Assembly (NCBI GenBank): GCA_965222115.1
Contig: CBDCTJ010000007.1
Coordinates: forward strand, 672,001 to 736,000
DNA: 64,000 nt
DNA from: Planctomycetota bacterium
GTDB lineage: Bacteria > Planctomycetota > PLA2 > JAEUHO01
Direction: 5' to 3'
Numbering within the stretch: the stretch's first letter is position 1; every line of letters begins with the position of its first letter. The notes under the pieces are model-generated. The model was not told the origin of the DNA and did not search any database. It saw only the letters and a program-made list of their open reading frames with translations. Of the stretch, positions 47,901-57,429 are shown in pieces. The position numbers and the translations under genes are program-made.

Positions 47901-47989
47901 ACGAATCCGCGAAGTCTACGAGCAGACAGTGGGCCTCTTTCTGAGTTACGCGCCGCGAAACTGTCCCCACCCACATGGATGCTGAAGCG

Positions 47990-48526
47990 ATGCGCATCAC
48001 CGTCTTGCTCGTCTGTTTTCTACTCGTGCCCACAGCGCTCAGCGCCAAGGACGATACACCTGTGGCGTCGTTTCCGTCGAAACTCCTTGGCACGTGGAAG
48101 GGCCCCGCCACCGTGAAGCGCCCGGGTCAAGCCGATATGTCGTTTCCCATGGAACTTCATGTGGAACCGATCGAAGGCAGAGATTCCTGGACGTGGAAGG
48201 TGATTTACGGCGAAGGTGAGAAGCGCCAGGTGCGTCCCTACGAACTCCTCGCCACAAAGGACGATCCCCACCACTTTCAGATCGACGAGAAGAACAGCAT
48301 CGTCATCGACGCCTACCACATCGACGGTCGCCTCTACTCGCGCTTCTGGGTTGCCGACAACATGATTGACGCTACCTACGAACGCAGCGGCGACAATCTC
48401 ATTTGCACGCTCGTCACCTACGGTGCCAAACCAGTCGTCATGACCGGTGGCAAGGGTCGTGTCCCTCGTGTGGCAAGCTACGAGTTGCGCGCGGTGCAGC
48501 GGGCGGTGTTGAAGAAGTCGCGTTGA
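47990..48526 (+). CDS. Secreted hypothetical protein (possible beta-barrel)
   Basis: Signal peptide; LLGTWKG...RPYEL...IDEKNSIVID. Confidence 0.7.
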   Translation: MRITVLLVCFLLVPTALSAKDDTPVASFPSKLLGTWKGPATVKRPGQADMSFPMELHVEPIEGRDSWTWKVIYGEGEKRQVRPYELLATKDDPHHFQIDEKNSIVIDAYHIDGRLYSRFWVADNMIDATYERSGDNLICTLVTYGAKPVVMTGGKGRVPRVASYELRAVQRAVLKKSR

Positions 48527-48529
48527 CGA

Positions 48530-48553
48530 GCGCTGGCGCGACGGTGCCAGCGC
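48530..48553. terminator. Hairpin between convergent genes
   Basis: GCGCTGGCGC-GACG-GTGCCAGCGC. Confidence 0.55.
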
Positions 48554-51500
48554 TACTTATCAACTTTCAGAGACGTTAGCTGCATATGGGCCTGATCCGC
48601 TCGATAGATCGTGTTATACATCAAGTCGTTTCGCTTTCGAATACCGCTGACGCGATCGCGCAGCTTAGCAACCAAGGATCGATATTTATGCGGATCCCTG
48701 AGGACAATGTCACACTGCGCGAGCACGGCAAGTGGTTCTGATGGGTCAAATACCGGTTGACGTGCAATCCATGTGCGGTGCTCATCAATTTGGCGCTGTG
48801 CGGGTTTCGATTGCTCGAACGAGCCACGCGTGCGGATTGTCTCAAGTTCACTTATGATTCGGGCGCGAATAACCGCTTGGTGCGCAGGATTCGAGGTTTG
48901 AGCGAGTAACGCGAGTAGTCTCTTGACAATCTGCTGGGACTCCCAAATTAGGCCGGGCACGCTGTAAGTGAAGTATCTAGCCTCAGCAACGATGTCGGCG
49001 ACTTTCATATCTATCTTCCATCCAATACACTCCGGGTGCATTGAATGACGCTTGACGATGCCCGATAGTGCTCCCCTTTGTTTAGAGGCCTTTCCGAACA
49101 CCTTGTGGAGCAACGCGCTTGCGGTATGGTAGCTTATGTCAGCTACTTCACTCCTTCGTTCGTGCTGAGGAGTCTTTTCAAGTTGCCTCATTAGATCTTC
49201 ATACTTCTTATGTTTCCATAAGTGGCCGTATAGCTTCCTTTCGCCGGCTATGTTGGTCGGATTGGGTGAGATTGAGCGCTCGTCTTTTGCATACTGAGTC
49301 CATAGTTTGTTGGCAAGTCGCATAAAAGACAAAAGTTCATCTGCGCTATTCGGGGCATCTCGATGCGTGAGGTATGCGCCATCGGGTGCAAGTGCGTAGA
49401 TTTGCGAGAATCCTTGATTTGAAAGTCGCAAATGCAGGAGTCTGCCCTCTTCCGTGGCATCTAGCCCGCCGAGTATCCTAACTGCCACGAACTTGTCGCC
49501 GAATCCTCTCATTTTTAGATCGCAGAACACACGGTCCCGCATGAAGAGTCAGGTTGGTCATGGCGGGTTGTATCTACTCACGACGACAAGTGCGATTTGT
49601 TTCGATTCCTTCGCCTTCTTCATTCCCAATCGAAGCGTAGGCTCAAATCTCACCAATGACGTCTTCGCTGTTCGCCCTTGGCGCACCCGAAAATCGCTTC
49701 GAGGCAACTTCCGCGACAATCGTGAGGGCGCTATACGACTCTCGATGGGGGGCAGAAAGTTGTTACCTTTGTTTGCCCCGACATAGTCGCGGGCGCGGCT
49801 TACGAGATCGCCCACATCTACGGACCATATGCGAACGGTATCAGAGAGCGCGATGACCTGCTTGGAACCGTTCGCAAAGCTTGCAGTGCGAAGGTACTTA
49901 TCGTGCCCATCTAGCGTGTCGATGAGATCGCCGGTCGTTCTAGCCCAGAGTCGTACCTTGCCGTCGTGGCAGGCGGTAATGAATCGATTTGATGAAGATG
50001 AAAACTCCGCTGCGACCACCAAGCTTGGATGCGATTTCCGAAGCACTTCAGCGCCAGTACTTGCGTCCCAAACTCTCGCCGTCTTGTCCATGCCCGCAGT
50101 AATCACCCACTTCTTGTCACGCGAAAGTGCAATATCCGAGACACGATTTTCATGACCGATGAGATAGTGTCTTGTCTTCTCGTTGAATGTCTCAATGATA
50201 GAGGCTGTAAAGTCCTCCGAAGCAGCAGCTATTAGTGATCCGTCTGGCGCTAGCGAGATCGCGTGTATGTGTCTCCGGTGCACATTGGCGCGTAAGATCT
50301 CGCGATGTTTGTTGTCATTCTTCTGAATCGAGCAGGCGACGACATCCCCATGTGAGTTTCCAAGCACGAGCACGTTCCCATCATCGGAAAATGCTTCACA
50401 CGTAATGTACCCACTCATCTTGAACGCATGCGATTCGCTACTGTAGTCTTTGCAGGACAGTAGCGTAGCTGTGTTGTCGTGTCCGATACGCAATAGCCAC
50501 CTACCGTCAGGCGAGAATCGGGTTCGATACGATTGACTCTTGGATACTCGGCTCCACAGGTTCCTGCCCGTAGACGTGTCCCGAATCTGAATAATCTGGT
50601 TGTCAACTTGCCCGGCCCCCTTCTCCTGCGCTGATGAGTGGGCCGGAACAACTGACAACACGGCGATAGTCTTTCCGTCGGGTGAGAGCGAGCAATGGTC
50701 AATCCTGCCCTTGATATCGGATAGCTGGCCCACTTCGCGGCCACTGTGCGTGTTCCGAATCGTCACCCTTGATCCAAACGGGGCTGTTGCGTTTGAACTC
50801 CAAATCGCGCAAATCGTGCCGTCCTGGGAAGTGGCCACACTCGAGACGGATCGAGGATGGTGAGAGAGTTCATGTTGCTGACTCGGGTCGAAAAATCGCC
50901 AAAGACGGGCGATTCGATCTTCGCTCGCGGTCACAATCTCGGGTCGAGAATGCGCGAACGCAACGCTGCGTACACGGTCACGGTGGCCTTCAAACGTATG
51001 AACGAGAGTGCCATGCTCTGTGTCCCAGAGTTTCACGGTGTGATCACTGGACCCAGTCGCTAGTGTTCCGCTGTCATACGAAAAGGCTGCGGAATCAACG
51101 CTCCCGCGATGTCCGGCCAAGCGATGCAGGAGGTCTCCGGAGGTGGCACTCCAGATGTGGACGTCGCCATTCTCTGAAGTTGTGCATACAAACGTGCCAT
51201 TTGGCGAGAAGCCCGCCCACGTCATGGGCGAATGACTATCGGGCACCTTGAGGGAGTGGACTTCGTCACCGGTAACGACGTTCCAAATGCGGGCGGATCC
51301 ATCGTTCGAAGACGTAACGGTGAGCGTTCCATCGCGAGAAAATGATGCGCACGTCAGTGACGCAGAATGGTCGTCTAGGACATGACGCTCTAGAAAGCCG
51401 TCGGTAGACCAAATTCTCGCCGTGCCGTCCCAGGATGCAGTGATTACATGTTTGCCGTTCGCCGAACACGCTACATGAACCACGTCTTTCTCATGCCCCG

Positions 51501-54405
51501 TCATTTTCGTGGCGACTTGTCCTCGCGTGACGTCCCACGCAAGTACATCGCCTCCCGCGCCAACGATCACAAGCGATTCGCCATCTGGTGTAAACGCAGC
51601 GTGAAGTGCCGGTCCTGAGGGTAGCGAGGCCTTTGAGATAATCGCAAGTGTCCTTGCGTTCCAGACGCGAAACGAGCCGTCGCTACAACAAGTGGCAATG
51701 CGATCGCCCGTAGGGCAAAAGCCCGCAAACGTAACGGGCACGCCCCTGTGATCCAGCACGCCGAGCACAGCTCCGTTTCTAGCAAGAGAAATCGTCGCGT
51801 TGCCGTCGTCAGACGCAGTGACCACATGGCGATCGTCGGGAGAAAACTCCGCATGATTTACAAAGCCTTGATGATGTTTGAGTGGCTGCGCGCACTCCAA
51901 CCGATGTAGGGCAAGCCGCAGTGCGACTTCAGCTTCGAGGCTAGGCTTCTTTTCCCTAGCTATCCCTATCGCTACGGCCTTTAGCCCGTCAGCGACGGCT
52001 TCCCGACTCCCGCCTTGTGATTCAAGCGCCTTAGACTTCGCTTTCTGAGCTAAGTGGAGCGCGTCTGCGCGCGCCTTCTCACGCTCCGCATCCCGTTTGG
52101 CCAACCTCTCCCTCGCGCTAGCTTGAGTCGCCTTTTCTCTCTCATTTTCGGCGATTGCTTTGGCCGATTCGGCCTCATCCCGTTGTTTCAGCGCTTCTTC
52201 GGTACTGGCAATGGCCTTTCGTTTCTCGGATTCAGCTTCACCGCGTGCCCGCTCAGCCGATTTCCTAAGCCCTTCCTCTTTAGACGCATATTGGTTCGCT
52301 ACCCGCTCTGACCGCTTCGCTCGTTTCTCTGAGTCTCTCGCCTTTTGGTAGAGCAACAGCACCGCCCCCAACGCAATCACTGCGGCAACAACCGACGCGC
52401 CAAGCACTTTGATGCGTGTGGCACGTGCCCGAACTCTTTGTTCCGCTTCTTCGCGAAGTCGGGCTTCTTCCTTGCGGCGGGACTCCGCTTCGCGTTCGCG
52501 CTGTTGAGCTTCACGTTGTCGTAACTCTGCGTCGCGACGCTTCTGTTCGGCCTCGCGCCGTCGTTGCTCGGAGGCGAGATGGAGTTCTTCGCGCTGCGCT
52601 TGCTCTTGTTGTTCGGCATCTCGACGCGCAACGGATGCTTGGATGAACTTGATTTCTGAAAGATTGAGCTCAACGTCTTCGCTTGCGATGAGGGCTTCGG
52701 CCTCGGCGAGAGGAAGTCCTGAGGGCAAGAGATAATCTTCATGCCGATGCTGTTCGTGCCACTGAATGCAGTCCGCCTCAACGCTCTCGCGCGTCCGGAG
52801 AAGCTTGCGGTTGTCGTCAAGCCAGTCTGCGAGTTGAGCCCACGAACGAAAGAGCGCTTCGTGCGTGACTTCAAGTGTTCGTTGTGTCCCCTCGCCATCG
52901 CTTACGAGTAGGCGGTCCTCTACGAATCGGTGCAGCCAAGGATGCGCAGCTTGTTCGAAGTTGTCCCATGACTCGATGCGTCGCGTAAACGTTCCATCGG
53001 CGCCTGTTCGTACGAGGCGCAAAAATGCGCGGCGGAGAACACTGAACTCAAGCGAGCCCTGCGGAATGTCGGACACAATCCGAGACGCGGCACTCTCGAT
53101 CGCGCCTTCCATTCCACCAACGCGATCTGTGTAGGCAGCGAGTCGAAGCTGCGTTTCACCATCGCATTGAATGCACTCGTCCCATAGCTTTCGCAGCGCG
53201 AAGGCGAGCAACGGAAGTGCGTGTTTTGCGCTGGCGTCCCGGGCAAGAGCGTCCACAAGTGCAGGTTCCATATCAACGCCGGCCAGTTCCGCGGGCCCCG
53301 CAATGACACGTCGCAGGCTTTCAGGGGCAATGGGTCCCAATGAGAGTTGTTCGCACTCGGCAATGTGCGCAAGCGCCGGGTCGTTCTGAAACTCTCCTAA
53401 GTGATCCGAGCGCAACGTAACGAGTACGCGCCATCCTTCCATCTGCGCCAGTTCACCGAGCAGGTGCAACTGATGTTCGTCTTTTCCGCGGTTCTCGGCG
53501 TGCAGGAGTTCTTCGGCTTGGTCAATCGTAACCAAGACGCGCGCTTGTTGATTGTCTCGTGCGCGCCGCATGCGATCGGCGAATCCACGTAGCACGTCAC
53601 GCGTTGTAACGGACGAGGTATCTCCGAACTCAATCGCGTTTCGAAGTTTCGTTTCCTCGCGCCCGGTATCGAGTCCGTCGCCGGATTTGGCGAGTACATC
53701 TTCGATGGCCTCTACGAAGTTCCCCACCAAACCACCGTGGGGCCGAATGGGCCGCAAGACAATCCAGTGATCTGCATCTTCCTTGAGGCGCGGAAGCAGG
53801 CCCGCACGCACCAACGACGACTTACCCGATCCTGAAGCACCAAGGACGAGCAAGAGTCGTGAAGAACCCAGTTGGCGCATGCGCGTGAGCGCGTCGAGAC
53901 CCGTTCGAATCGACTCGTCGCGACCAAAGAACACTCGCGCATGCTCTTCTTGGTACGCAAGTAGTCCGGGATACGGGGGACGCTGTTTGTTCCATGCCTT
54001 CTCCCTGCCGCGGGAGATGCCAAGTCGATTGAACGAGTTCCATAGGCGGTCGTAGGCGTTTGGGTCTGTATCCAGTTTGATGGCTTGAAGATCGTGAATC
54101 GGTTCCGCGAGCGCTGCATCATCGATGGACAGCGGTATGAGGTTCTTACCAATCGCCCGCGCTTGCGTAATTTCTGCAAAACACCACTTCGACGATGTGG
54201 AGTTCTTGCTATTTATGAATAGCACGACGTCACAAGCTCTGATGCGTTGATACAGCTCGCGCTGCCAATTGACGCCCGCGGGGATACCGTCGCTAGGATG
54301 GAAATCCAGGAAGAGTGAGTCATATCCTTGGGCGGTGAGTCGCTGACGAAGGTCCTTCGCCGCAGCATTGTCTTTGCTGCTGTGACTAATGAATATCTGC
54401 CCCAC
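48553..54405 (-). CDS. TIR - nSTAND1 NTPase - TM - WD40 - thioredoxin(UxxU) - helical protein; probable selenoprotein of ~1950 aa (split by the ORF track into 49558-54720 and 48553-49542)
   Basis: TIR IFISHSSKD...WCFAE; PYPGL...FFGR, Walker A GASGSGKSS, IDQAEE; TM; many WD40 repeats; in-frame TGA-CCA-ACC-TGA inside a thioredoxin-like domain. GTG start at 54405 inferred from the TIR boundary. Confidence refers to the read-through; the domain calls are stronger. Confidence 0.75.
49522..49540 (-). other. Candidate bacterial SECIS hairpin
   Basis: Minus-strand GCGGGAC-CGUGU-GUUCUGC 7-bp stem (two G-U pairs); 15 nt separate the second UGA from the loop and 24 nt the first; G at loop position 2. 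Confidence 0.55.
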
Positions 54406-54597
54406 GCTGCGTGCTTCTCTCTGCCTATCCGTGCGATGAAATCCCGTGTGAGAAGGGACGATAGCAAGCAGCAATCGGACGTACGAATCGGTGCGGGACA
54501 GGTATGCTGACAACGGGCTACGGCGTCTAAGCATGGAAGTCATGTTGGGTCGCGTTGAGTGCAGCATGAGACACCGATTCGGAGGTTGATCAACCGC

Positions 54598-55977
54598 ATG
54601 CGCCGCTTCGTCCTGCCCATCCTCTGCGTCGTTGGGATCTTGAGTATTGGGGCATTTGTGACGCACCGCAAAGTGCGTGACGATGAGCTTGAGGCGCTCT
54701 ATCGCGTGTGGAAGTCGCACGGGGAGGCGGGGCGCGGTAATTCTTTGGACGACTTGATTGCCGAGTTGCCGCCACTGAACCTAGACCGGCAGCGGCGCAT
54801 ACGAGAACTGCTTGAGTCGTATCAACAGCTCGAAGATGACGCCTACTGGCACGTGGATGCTGCGCGTTACGTTGACCGAGATACTGCGCGTTCAAACGAG
54901 TCTGCCGCGTGGCACGAACGGCTGCGCCCATTTATGGAACGCTTCTTTGAAATTCTGGAGGAGGACACTTCGTGCCTCTCAAGCGTCGCATGGATCAATG
55001 AACGGCGCGATGAATTGGAGCAAGCGCCCATTGATGAGCCGTGCAAAGGAAGGCCGAAATTGGGCAACGGCATTCACCGCGCAGTTGGCTGGCTCGAGGC
55101 AGAAGTGTTGACGCAAGAGAACCCAACATCATCGCTGCGGCGCATGGATCTCTTGTGGAACTCTCTGAACTATCTAGGTGATGGATCGGATTGGCACTCA
55201 TGGCTTATTGCATCGTATGCTCGTGACTCGTTGTATTGTGTATTGGCGCTGCGTGGTGATCTACCGGAGTCCACACTTTGGCAATGGATTGCCGAGCCCA
55301 GTCAAAGTGCTCGCAACTATGCCGGGTGGTTGCGCTATGAACGCATCGCGCATGTGGGACGATTGTCGCGGCGTGTGCTCAAGGGCGAAGACGTGTCGGA
55401 TTGTTGCGGGCGCCATCTAGGCTTCTTTGCTCGGCTGCGGATGTCGTCACCGCTTGAAGTTGCCCAAGCCCTGGAGTTTGGTCTCGCCGCGGAGGACTAC
55501 CTCCTGGGATCGGCAACCGCCGCACGCGTCCGTGTACTCGGGCAGCGACTCACCCACGCGCGCTATCCGATTTCCATGATGACAAACCTCGAGAGTATGT
55601 CTCACCTCGTCAGTGCGTCGCGGCAGATCGACGCGGCACATCGATCGATCCGCATTGGCACCCTCTTGGCCGTGGCAGCGCAGCGCCGCCGAGAACTGCC
55701 GAACTCCCACGACGACGCGCTGACATGGCTTCCTGAAGCGTTTCGGGATCGCGCCCGTGCTACACCTACGCGCCAGGGGCTGCTCATTGAACGTTTGGAT
55801 GAACAAACATTGCGAGTGCGACCTGATCCCTGGAGCGAAGTCCCCGGGTTCCATCCAAGCGCGAGGCCGCCCTCCGATCCCTTGGCGAACGAGAATCGAC
55901 GGCGGAGACCACGTCCCACGCTCTCGCTCAACCCATTCACGTTTGTCTGTGAGACCTGCACGACCTCCGCAAGGTAG
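54598..55977 (+). CDS. Membrane-anchored hypothetical helical protein
   Basis: GGAGG RBS; N-terminal TM MRRFVLPILCVVGILSIGAFV; long open frame. Confidence 0.65.
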   Translation: MRRFVLPILCVVGILSIGAFVTHRKVRDDELEALYRVWKSHGEAGRGNSLDDLIAELPPLNLDRQRRIRELLESYQQLEDDAYWHVDAARYVDRDTARSNESAAWHERLRPFMERFFEILEEDTSCLSSVAWINERRDELEQAPIDEPCKGRPKLGNGIHRAVGWLEAEVLTQENPTSSLRRMDLLWNSLNYLGDGSDWHSWLIASYARDSLYCVLALRGDLPESTLWQWIAEPSQSARNYAGWLRYERIAHVGRLSRRVLKGEDVSDCCGRHLGFFARLRMSSPLEVAQALEFGLAAEDYLLGSATAARVRVLGQRLTHARYPISMMTNLESMSHLVSASRQIDAAHRSIRIGTLLAVAAQRRRELPNSHDDALTWLPEAFRDRARATPTRQGLLIERLDEQTLRVRPDPWSEVPGFHPSARPPSDPLANENRRRRPRPTLSLNPFTFVCETCTTSAR

Positions 55978-56046
55978 CTGCGAGGTGTGCGTCTAAGATA
56001 GTCAGGTTCGCGCGGGTGTTGCGCGTTGCGCATTTGGAGGACATGG

Positions 56047-57429
56047 ATGCAACCACGTCGATCCGAGGTCGTAACGATTGCGGCGTTTGGCGTGCTCGCG
56101 GCGTGGTTTGTGTTGGCAAGTGCCGTGCAACTTGATGCCAAGGAAGAAGCGCCGGGCCCTACGGTCGAATCCACGCACTACATAGTTCGCTTGGACTTTG
56201 ACGACAAGGCCATGGCGAAGAAGGTCAGCGCCGTGGCCGAATCGGCGTGGAAGCACACACAAGCGTTCACGCAGATGAGCGACGCAATACTCGATCCCAA
56301 ACTCGATGTCTTTGTGTATGAGGCCGTCGCGGGCTATCAAGCGGCCGAAAAGAAACTCACGAAGGGTCGCTTCGCAAAGAGCCTGTTCTTTACGCACCAC
56401 AACACGAAAGCGTGCCATTGCACCCTTGTTCCAGGCGGTGATCGAACCTTGCAATCTGCGCTCGGCGTGTCGGAACACTTCCTGCGCCAATGTGCCCATG
56501 AGGCATCCCATGCGGCAGTCTATGTGTTGTTCAGTAACTACCGCTCCCATCCCGATTGGATGGCCGAAGGCATCGCGACGCATATTGCTGAACGTGTGTC
56601 GAGGGAACGCCGTTGGAGTGCGGACGGATTGAACTCGCCTTTTTACGGCATGCGCATGATCAACTGTCAAACGTTGCGTCGTCGTGGTCTTTTGCCGGAA
56701 CCGCGCGCGATTTTTCAGGAGGAGCTCGATCATCTCTCGACAAACCATCGCTACAGCGTGTGGTGGTCGTTCTTTCGATTCTTGGTCGAGAAACATCCCA
56801 AGGCGCTCCGCAAGATCCTGAAGGGTGCGCGAGGTCTCGGTGGAGGAACGGGCTACACGATGCGGCTTTACGACATCGTTCGAAAGCAGTTTGACGACGA
56901 GGCGCTCGACGCATTGAATCGGTCCTATCGCGACTATGTCGATGCATTTGAACCGGTGTGGAGTGAGCCCCACCGCACATTGGAGGTGCGGGGGAAGCGC
57001 TGGACGCAGATGGCGTATCCCAAGTCCAACGCGATTGCTTGGCAGCGCGCGCAGTTGCCCTCCTCGTGCGCTATCAAGGGGCGCGTGACGATTCCGCCAT
57101 CGGGTAATCCTCAAGCCAATGTGCTGGTGGGTGGCGTCGAAGTGGGTTTTTACTCCATCGCGTTTCGCGTGGGTTCGGGGGTTACGGTCTTTGAGCGCCT
57201 CATCGCGAGAAACAAGTGGAATCGAGCGAAGCACGAGAAGTTCGCGTTTGCCGCCAACAAGCCGATCGACTTCGACATTGAAATTGATGGCGACAAGATC
57301 CATATCGGCGTGAACGGCAAGCAGCGATTTGGTCTCACCGCCACCCGCACGTTGGAAGGCCGATTCGGCGTGGGCGTTCAGGCGCGCGGCGGCGCCACGT
57401 GGGAAAACGTAACGATTCGAACGAAGTAG
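56047..57429 (+). CDS. Secreted zincin (HEXXH) metallopeptidase-like protein with C-terminal beta-sandwich
   Basis: AHEASHA...PDWMAEGIA; C-terminal LEGRFGVG...WENV lectin-like segment. Confidence 0.7.
   Translation: MQPRRSEVVTIAAFGVLAAWFVLASAVQLDAKEEAPGPTVESTHYIVRLDFDDKAMAKKVSAVAESAWKHTQAFTQMSDAILDPKLDVFVYEAVAGYQAAEKKLTKGRFAKSLFFTHHNTKACHCTLVPGGDRTLQSALGVSEHFLRQCAHEASHAAVYVLFSNYRSHPDWMAEGIATHIAERVSRERRWSADGLNSPFYGMRMINCQTLRRRGLLPEPRAIFQEELDHLSTNHRYSVWWSFFRFLVEKHPKALRKILKGARGLGGGTGYTMRLYDIVRKQFDDEALDALNRSYRDYVDAFEPVWSEPHRTLEVRGKRWTQMAYPKSNAIAWQRAQLPSSCAIKGRVTIPPSGNPQANVLVGGVEVGFYSIAFRVGSGVTVFERLIARNKWNRAKHEKFAFAANKPIDFDIEIDGDKIHIGVNGKQRFGLTATRTLEGRFGVGVQARGGATWENVTIRTK

Follow-up and report, generated by a model that had tools for sequence, protein, structure and literature searches.

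The stretch of 64,000 nucleotides analysed here (the window; contig CBDCTJ010000007.1 of assembly GCA_965222115.1, from a Planctomycetota bacterium of the PLA2 lineage) carries on its minus strand two open reading frames (ORFs), one of 1720 amino acids (aa; 54720..49558) and one of 329 aa (49542..48553), which lie in the same frame with only two TGA codons between them, and which probably form a single gene for a selenocysteine (Sec, U) protein. At the junction the strand reads ...TAC AAC CCG CCA TGA (49560-49558) CCA ACC TGA (49551-49549) CTC TTC ATG (49542-49540) CGG GAC..., and beyond the second TGA the frame of 1720 codons stays open for 331 codons further, to 48553. Translation with TGA as U gives one unbroken frame: 2055 codons from GTG 54720, with U1721 and U1724; 1950 codons when counted from GTG 54405, the start implied by the gene call P0004. 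Residue numbers are those of the 2055-codon read-through protein (P0001); "module" denotes its C-terminal 385 residues. An earlier note on this DNA had proposed a hidden UxxU thioredoxin (Trx) domain at the end of a TIR-STAND-WD40 receptor; its ORF layout, coordinates and read-through peptide all agree with the minus-strand sequence and translation, and standard annotation does split the gene as it had said, the public protein collection holding the locus as two proteins, P0004 (1615 aa) and P0002 (329 aa). The TGAs themselves, for which the note looked to the reads, are present in Logan contigs of two samples: contigs from three runs (two samples, one study) cover 49000-50100 with 0 differing letters, and a contig of 207 nt from the second sample spans 49480-49686 and keeps both TGAs. 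One of these runs may be the assembly's own source; the independent support is that of the second sample. Among the runs listed for the site there was no RNA run.

Homologues with Cys or Sec at the positions of the two UGAs, as the earlier note would have it, were found in genome alignments, by HMMER and by profile scan, and comprise CxxC, UxxC and UxxU forms. Among 41 related genomes the module was matched in nine, all of the same family (family, 8/24; sister family, 0/11; rest of the phylum, 0/5), and several of these matches contain one or two TGAs. At 13 places in the nine genomes the motif column reads UPTU (window), UFLU (two, both in the related genome G022), UPPC (five, including a paralogue from the genome of the window itself), UGGC (one), CPGC, CPAC and CPPC (one each) and a degenerate or lost form (one). 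Scanning the 29 genomes available for the family with the profile brought three additional UPPC genes and several Cys or degenerate forms; U or C at motif column 1 with C or U at column 4 is found in more than 25 family members. When 1.84 billion representatives were searched exhaustively with HMMER, 18 hits came back. Among them, eight full-length proteins (386-447 aa) begin with a signal-like or lipoprotein-like segment and have CxxC at the motif, or SxxC in one case; a further seven are gene calls that start directly past the motif, as is usual where a Sec gene goes unrecognised. Several Cys homologues exceed Pfam cut-offs (Thioredoxin_7, PF13899: P0007, 29.1 bits, and P0008, 28.3 bits, vs 27; Thioredoxin_2: P0005, 27.4 bits) and bear TPR repeats behind the Trx domain. 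Against the curated NCBIfam families of Trx-like selenoproteins (NF041199, NF041383, NF045694) the Cys homologues score at best 16-24 bits, with cut-offs of 275-805. The window's module is a divergent member of this family, its membership being founded on profile and fold. In a word-indexed protein search its sole match was the window's own 329-aa ORF. The same kind of search with alignment A1 found no longer fused forms in the protein database, which is weak evidence.

The paralogue in the same genome (G000:C1:30965-32080, plus strand) is a free-standing, intact Trx-TPR gene with U-PP-C, one TGA and an N-terminal signal-like segment, scoring 408 bits to the family profile; it is probably a second selenoprotein gene of this family. 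The family-wide scan also returned many further Trx-like matches with one in-frame TGA (e.g., G008:C5:264522-265271; G016:C612:2000-2641; G043:C61; G020:C2:42196), and GUGPC occurs in L075 and L043 alongside WCGWC Cys forms. To judge from these sequences, the lineage seems rich in unannotated Trx-fold selenoproteins.

The sole other UxxU copies are two genes of G022, P0020 (~975 aa) and P0021 (~995 aa). In both, a TIR_2 domain (52.3 and 40.9 bits) at the N-terminus precedes a single hydrophobic segment whose N-side flank is rich in Arg/Lys; a linker rich in Pro, Ig-like domains (Glucodextran_B, Big_9) and the Trx(UxxU)-helical module come after it. Common to the three UxxU modules is Y-x-P-P-U-x-x-U-x-x-M-R-D, and in the tree they fall on one side of a branch (support 87/93). 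UxxU is TIR-linked in 3/3 cases and occurs in none of the 23 free-standing tree rows. The G022 paralogues are 53% identical and have 325 aligned codons open past the UGAs, with pN (0.46) below pS (0.64), a rough comparison, pS (~0.63-0.64) being near saturation. The DNA pattern P-U-x-x-U-x-x-M-R-D-x-h-F matched six stretches in genome contigs, of which two were real (the G022 copies), and seven in metagenome contigs, of which none was real; the pattern is narrow, so absence of UxxU forms elsewhere is not implied. Patterns derived from alignment A2 held Cys codons and were unable to match TGA; all 67 of their 67 matches failed confirmation.

The module is modelled by AlphaFold2 (AF2), with alignment A1 (23 rows), as a thioredoxin fold followed by a helical TPR-like domain (mean predicted local distance difference score, pLDDT, 89.1; predicted template modelling score, pTM, 0.86). 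Elements of the first part follow the order E-H-E-[U51,U54]-H-E-H-E-E-H (module numbering; E, strand; H, helix): strand 22-23; helix 26-36; strand 39-45; U51/U54 at the start of helix 52-61; strand 74-80; helix 87-95; strands 103-107 and 113-118; helix 123-146; twelve helices then follow. The CxxC position is at the N-terminus of the first long helix past strand 2 in the AF2 model, in Foldseek superpositions and in the alignment with 2kuc. Foldseek matches of the first part are DsbD-gamma 1uc7 (template modelling score 0.72 on the target; root-mean-square deviation 2.8), DsbH 2ju5 (0.63) and AGR2/3; the whole model matches the Trx+helical proteins YbbN (3qou) and Bab1_2064 (7tkv). The family profile, compared with PDB, finds the Thioredoxin_7-type 2kuc (E 2.8e-10, motif on its CGPC) and, for the helical half, BamD/YfiO 3qky (E 5.9e-11). 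The Thioredoxin_7-type layout of the earlier note is thus upheld as a continuous Trx fold across the UGAs (AF2, Foldseek, profile vs PDB), but not as a Pfam assignment of the module: the gathering cut-off of Thioredoxin_7 (27 bits) is approached by P0020 of G022 (22.8 bits), while the window's module has no match to it, and TPR families of Pfam have no match in the window's own copy.

A putative bacterial Sec insertion sequence (bSECIS) hairpin follows the UGAs within the coding sequence (Table 1), its loop 24 nt past UGA1 and 15 nt past UGA2 and its energy -8.5 kcal/mol. With respect to UGA1 it lies within the published limits for such hairpins in PMC13188914 (loop, 3-9 nt, with G among its first two positions; stem, 4-16 bp; distance to UGA, 16-37 nt; minimum free energy at or below -7.5). 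The hairpin starts 18-19 nt past UGA1 in 12/12 Sec-type genes, with stems of 6-7 bp and a loop xGUxU; stems are GAGAAC/GUUCUC in UxxC forms, GAGGGAC/GUUCCUC in the G022 UxxU genes and GCGGGAC/GUUCUGC in the window. In alignment A3, 94% of stem cells pair. Pair 28-44 is G-C in nine genes, A-U in two and C-G in one (window); pair 29-43 is A-U in nine, G-C in two and G-U in one. The covariation score is 0.355 vs 0.228 when shuffled, a value reached by 1/500 shuffles, and with the partner slid by 1-3 columns as a control, pairing falls to 40-74% of cells. The six inner pairs are formed in 72/72 cells of the 12 Sec-type genes vs 13/24 of four Cys-type genes, whose loops also lack GU. The two-sided stem change of the window comes with two amino-acid substitutions (E to R, S to C) when set against UxxC forms. 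In the 24-nt local fold, the energies of some UxxC relatives go no lower than -5.9 to -6.2.

Decoding of both UGAs need not be efficient, least of all where two sites depend on one hairpin. Bacterial Sec insertion competes with RF2, UGA2 stands at the edge of the published spacing range, and TGA is a normal stop in this genome (257/994 long frames); it is conceivable that translation mostly yields a TIR-STAND-WD40 protein of 1720 residues that stops at UGA1 or UGA2, with full length reached only where selenium and SelB are ample, and that selenium supply would then set the ratio of sensor-less to sensor-bearing receptor. The UGA-stopped protein would however bear a useless third of a Trx fold (strand-helix-strand only), and the two-UGA arrangement is kept in the two diverged G022 genes, which speaks for selection on the full-length product. 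A locus making both products in this way is thought unlikely.

Sec machinery, on which the earlier note made its proposal depend, is present for the most part. The tRNA-Sec is recognised by Rfam (71.6 bits vs 47) and by ARAGORN (anticodon TCA) and is the sole UCA tRNA among 51 in the genome, tRNA-Trp being CCA; SelA (416 bits) and SelB are intact, with open frames of 581 and 651 aa. The selD gene scores 150.6 bits (cut-off 125) and has a TGA at the known Sec/Cys site (AAGG*AAK), but is fragmented at a contig end; in three relatives selD is intact, and its one TGA stands at that same site. A changed genetic code (TGA as Trp or Gly) was also weighed and rejected in view of the CCA anticodon of tRNA-Trp, the lack of any UCA tRNA besides tRNA-Sec and the use of TGA as terminator. 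Stop-to-stop frames of at least 500 codons (n=994, whole genome) end with TAG in 518 cases, TGA in 257 and TAA in 219; TAG as the commonest stop is unusual at the GC content of this genome, 58.7%.

The earlier note had held that two UGAs at the two Cys positions are hard to explain by chance. This stands by homologue alignment, but the ORF geometry is by itself weak evidence against chance: same-frame junctions bridged by TGA alone number 255 in the genome with at least 150 aa open on each side, and 17 with at least 300 aa. The site stands above chance because its two TGAs coincide with the pair of Cys columns in a conserved thioredoxin motif. The U-P-T-U string can itself arise by chance. An ISL3-like transposase gene, present in two copies (G000:C7:2430656-2432734, plus strand; G000:C7:184413-186431, minus strand), ends ...HPKLP-TGA-CCN-ACN-TGA, which gives the same string; the sequences after it differ between the copies, and the TGAs there are therefore true stops. 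The window's TGAs could be true stops as well, a CxxC having been hit twice by TGY-to-TGA changes or the upstream gene simply ending there, with the 329-aa ORF separate or untranslated. The split made by gene callers, the frequency of TGA-bridged ORF pairs, the damaged look of selD and the chance occurrence of UPTU at the transposase end would all agree with this. We regard it as very improbable, given the position of both TGAs on the Cys columns, the relatives that also have TGA there (12 at the first column, two at both), each of which stays open further on, and the hairpin pairing preserved by a two-sided change in the window itself; moreover, ATG 49542, the start that a separate ORF would use, is the conserved internal Met of the M-R-D motif common to the G022 genes, and the Trx fold of the upstream product would break off past strand 2.

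Upstream of the UGAs the receptor part named in the earlier note was found in full by Pfam (TIR_2, nSTAND1, WD40; Table 1). The TIR domain has the motif SKWCFAEI, spotted by eye, whose Glu may correspond to the catalytic Glu of plant and bacterial TIRs, and the NTPase has the Walker A sequence GASGSGKSS, likewise by eye. A hydrophobic segment at residues 772-790/791, set in a highly charged stretch between NTPase and WD40 and not noticed before, is the only Kyte-Doolittle peak of at least 1.6 in the 2055 residues. The sequence suggests an N-in, C-out topology, with WD40 and Trx outside the cytoplasmic membrane, since TIR and ATPase need cytoplasmic substrates and the free-standing Trx-TPR relatives bear signal or lipoprotein leaders; the build of the two G022 UxxU proteins supports it. 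In 29 family genomes the N-terminal half of the protein had no close orthologue, only paralogues at 30-36% identity.

Table 1 Features of the proposed selenoprotein gene, and selD of the same genome. Positions are those of the window unless a contig is given; bits are followed by the score they are compared with.
Feature	Position	Strand	Basis or remark
Whole proposed selenoprotein gene	48553..54405	-	GTG 54405 to TAA/TAG stop 48555-48553; 1950 codons incl. two UGA; open upstream to GTG 54720
TIR domain (TIR_2, residues 109-226)	54043..54396	-	Pfam TIR_2 (PF13676), 74.7 bits vs 28
nSTAND1 NTPase (residues 249-661)	52738..53976	-	Pfam PF20703, 288.9 bits vs 27.1; profile positions 1-378 of 379
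Single hydrophobic (putative transmembrane) segment, residues 772-791	52348..52407	-	Kyte-Doolittle 2.73; charged coiled-coil-like stretches on both sides
WD40 beta-propeller region (about residues 940-1630)	49831..51903	-	Pfam WD40, 227 bits, 9 stretches, plus many beta-propeller families
Thioredoxin fold (module residues 20-146; P0001 1690-1816)	49273..49653	-	AF2; Foldseek; profile vs 2kuc
UGA1, proposed Sec1721, first position of UxxU	49558..49560	-	Aligned with U or C of UxxC/CxxC homologues
UGA2, proposed Sec1724, second position of UxxU	49549..49551	-	Aligned with second Cys of homologues and second U of two G022 genes
Putative bSECIS hairpin GCGGGAC-CGUGU-GUUCUGC	49522..49540	-	7 bp stem; 5-nt loop; GU at loop positions 2-3
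All-helical TPR-like domain (module residues 154-383)	48562..49251	-	12 AF2 helices; family profile vs BamD/YfiO
selD	G000:C1:654300-655637		Within last 2 kb of contig C1, ~1.2 kb of contig end; outside the window

Nothing about function can be read from the gene neighbourhood, which has an MBL-fold protein, a methyltransferase and four ORFs that lack Pfam hits. For the flanking long ORFs 54559-55977 (plus), 56002-57303 (minus), 56026-57429 (plus) and 47975-48526 (plus), Pfam gave no match at E<=0.001; as two overlap one another on opposite strands, they are probably not both genes.

The locus is read as one Sec-decoded gene of ~1950 residues with a TIR-STAND-transmembrane-WD40-Trx(UxxU)-TPR architecture, at a probability of roughly 0.8, a figure that does not cover any sensing mechanism. 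Its computed basis comprises the open frame, the modelled fold, homologues with Sec or Cys, the hairpin, the presence of Sec genes and a second genome in which TIR, transmembrane segment and UxxU Trx occur together again, and the hidden selenoprotein domain is real and well supported. Several points weigh against this reading. For the module: it matches no Pfam (0 families) or NCBIfam family at E<=0.1 and is 17-25% identical to its relatives; UxxU was found in two genomes only; and the branch that joins the UxxU modules in the tree involves long branches and is hence indecisive. For the hairpin: the UGA2-to-loop spacing of 15 nt is one short of the 16-37 nt given in the text of PMC13188914; the stem sits in conserved codons (E-N-R-V-F-S); Cys-type genes retain part of it (5/6, 4/6, 3/6 and 1/6 pairs); the covariation is carried by about three lineages; the 106-nt region folds no better than shuffles (z 0.39); and Rfam has no match in the 601-nt region at E<=10. 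For the topology: it is drawn from one hydrophobicity peak, and the flanking charges are positive on both sides. The main risk is selD, which shifts frame at least eight times within about 1 kb in this assembly; were it truly decayed, no Sec could be made. The damage is either an assembly error at the contig end or real decay. The last 2 kb of C1, the only 2-kb bin examined there without an open frame of at least 200 aa (mean cover 0.91 in the 200-kb control), fits both. On C1 selD lies downstream of the C-terminal end of selA, and the main part of selA is at the start of contig C7, which places the contig break inside a selA-selD operon.

Under the single-gene reading both UGAs would be decoded as Sec by SelB and tRNA-Sec, guided by the one hairpin in the downstream coding sequence, the counterpart of which would serve the lone UGA of the UxxC relatives. 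The product would be a single-pass membrane protein with TIR (effector) and nSTAND1 ATPase (switch, oligomeriser) in the cytoplasm, a coiled coil and one transmembrane helix as the link between inner and outer parts, and, outside the cytoplasmic membrane, two WD40 propeller regions and then a Trx-TPR module presumably borrowed from the secreted Planctomycetota family, i.e., a Thioredoxin_7-like domain with U-P-T-U in place of CxxC and a TPR-like helical domain. The outer domain might change with the redox state of the Sec-Sec centre (diselenide or selenols), or when a periplasmic client, retained by the TPR part, forms a mixed selenenyl-sulfide with that centre, and the change might be passed by oligomerisation to the STAND and TIR parts. 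That the Sec-Sec centre acts as the sensing end, or redox switch, as the earlier note supposed, is put forward tentatively, and the same reserve applies to a wider suggestion: that single-pass TIR receptors, some having a STAND ATPase and some lacking it, form a class in Planctomycetota in which an extracytoplasmic diselenide (UxxU) Trx-TPR end might gate the cytoplasmic TIR by periplasmic redox sensing or by covalent trapping of thiol/disulfide clients. The Sec gene could also be real and its Trx-TPR end an anchored periplasmic oxidoreductase or chaperone (DsbD-gamma/DsbH- or CnoX-like) with no control over the TIR. The free-standing relatives, secreted or lipoprotein-like Trx-TPR proteins without a signalling domain, speak for such an enzyme, as do the nearest folds (the redox enzymes DsbD-gamma and DsbH; the Trx+TPR chaperone YbbN), yet in STAND proteins the C-terminal repeat region is usually the sensor, and the confinement of the UxxU subtype to TIR-linked proteins suggests a role tied to TIR; the anchored enzyme is accordingly held to be a doubtful, if real, possibility.

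Whatever its function, a large NLR-like protein here bears a domain that standard gene calling removes, and truncations of this sort may conceal sensor domains in other bacteria that use Sec. The Planctomycetota Trx7-TPR family (UxxC, UxxU, CxxC) is apparently uncurated, being below threshold in the NCBIfam release scanned and absent from the family table text of the review searched. Its UxxU forms offer a compact natural system, about 66 nt, for how one bacterial SECIS handles two nearby UGAs; if the wider suggestion above is true, this would be a natural case of one such element for two UGAs three codons apart, and the protein would be the first selenoprotein among NLR-like or TIR immune-type proteins. 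The restriction of UxxU to TIR-linked membrane proteins gives a hint that TIR signalling across the membrane is tied to the redox chemistry of selenium, a link of which no description was found in the titles, abstracts and review text searched.

Trx-fold selenoproteins and TIR-STAND proteins each belong to a known kind. No description appears to exist of the Trx7-TPR Sec family, of its UxxU subtype or, most notably, of the fusion to TIR membrane proteins, although supplementary lists of selenoproteome papers may include the family. In agreement with the earlier note, no TIR/STAND selenoprotein was found in the literature searched (titles and abstracts) or in the review text. The words TIR, WD40, TPR, PF13899 and Planctomycet do not occur in the searched text of that 2026 review (PMC13188914).

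Among known systems, SelL was the example of UxxU cited in the earlier note. It is alike in having UxxU in a Trx-like fold, and it reportedly forms a diselenide bond (title of a 2007 paper by Shchedrina and colleagues, in the reference list of PMC2398784); it differs in being eukaryotic, Prx-like, small and soluble, with a SECIS in the 3' untranslated region, and is not homologous to the window's module at family level. The motif exists in SelL, but is not unique to that eukaryotic protein, UxxU being listed for three prokaryotic families in the text consulted of PMC13188914, PMC9312934 and PMC2398784. The Prx-like thiol:disulfide oxidoreductase and Prx-like 2 (GOS) families are alike in having a Trx-superfamily motif with Sec at the first or both positions and Cys homologues there (same sources); they are small AhpC-TSA/Prx-like (PF00578) enzymes, whereas the window's domain is Thioredoxin_7-like with a TPR tail and is fused to a signalling protein, and no match to AhpC-TSA (PF00578) or related families occurred in any Pfam scan (window, homologues, G022 proteins). 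The Trx7/PDZ (seleno)protein family NF041199 shares a secreted Thioredoxin_7-type domain with Sec in the redox motif; its motif is given as CxxU and its partner domain as PDZ, the Cys homologues score 20-22 bits to it vs a cut-off of 300, and the window's module has no match. DsbD-gamma, DsbH, AGR2-type proteins, YbbN (CnoX) and Bab1_2064 are the best structural matches to the module; they use Cys (or are without the first Cys), none is fused to TIR/STAND, and identity is 10-18%. nSTAND1 is defined as a conflict-system NTPase in PMC8195603, the searched text of which has no occurrence of thioredoxin, periplasm or redox. Closest in overall plan are the bacterial TIR-STAND (NLR-like) nSTAND1 conflict-system proteins, which have an N-terminal TIR, a central nSTAND1 and C-terminal repeats as here; the window's protein differs from them in the predicted transmembrane segment between NTPase and repeats and in the selenoprotein redox domain at its C-terminus.

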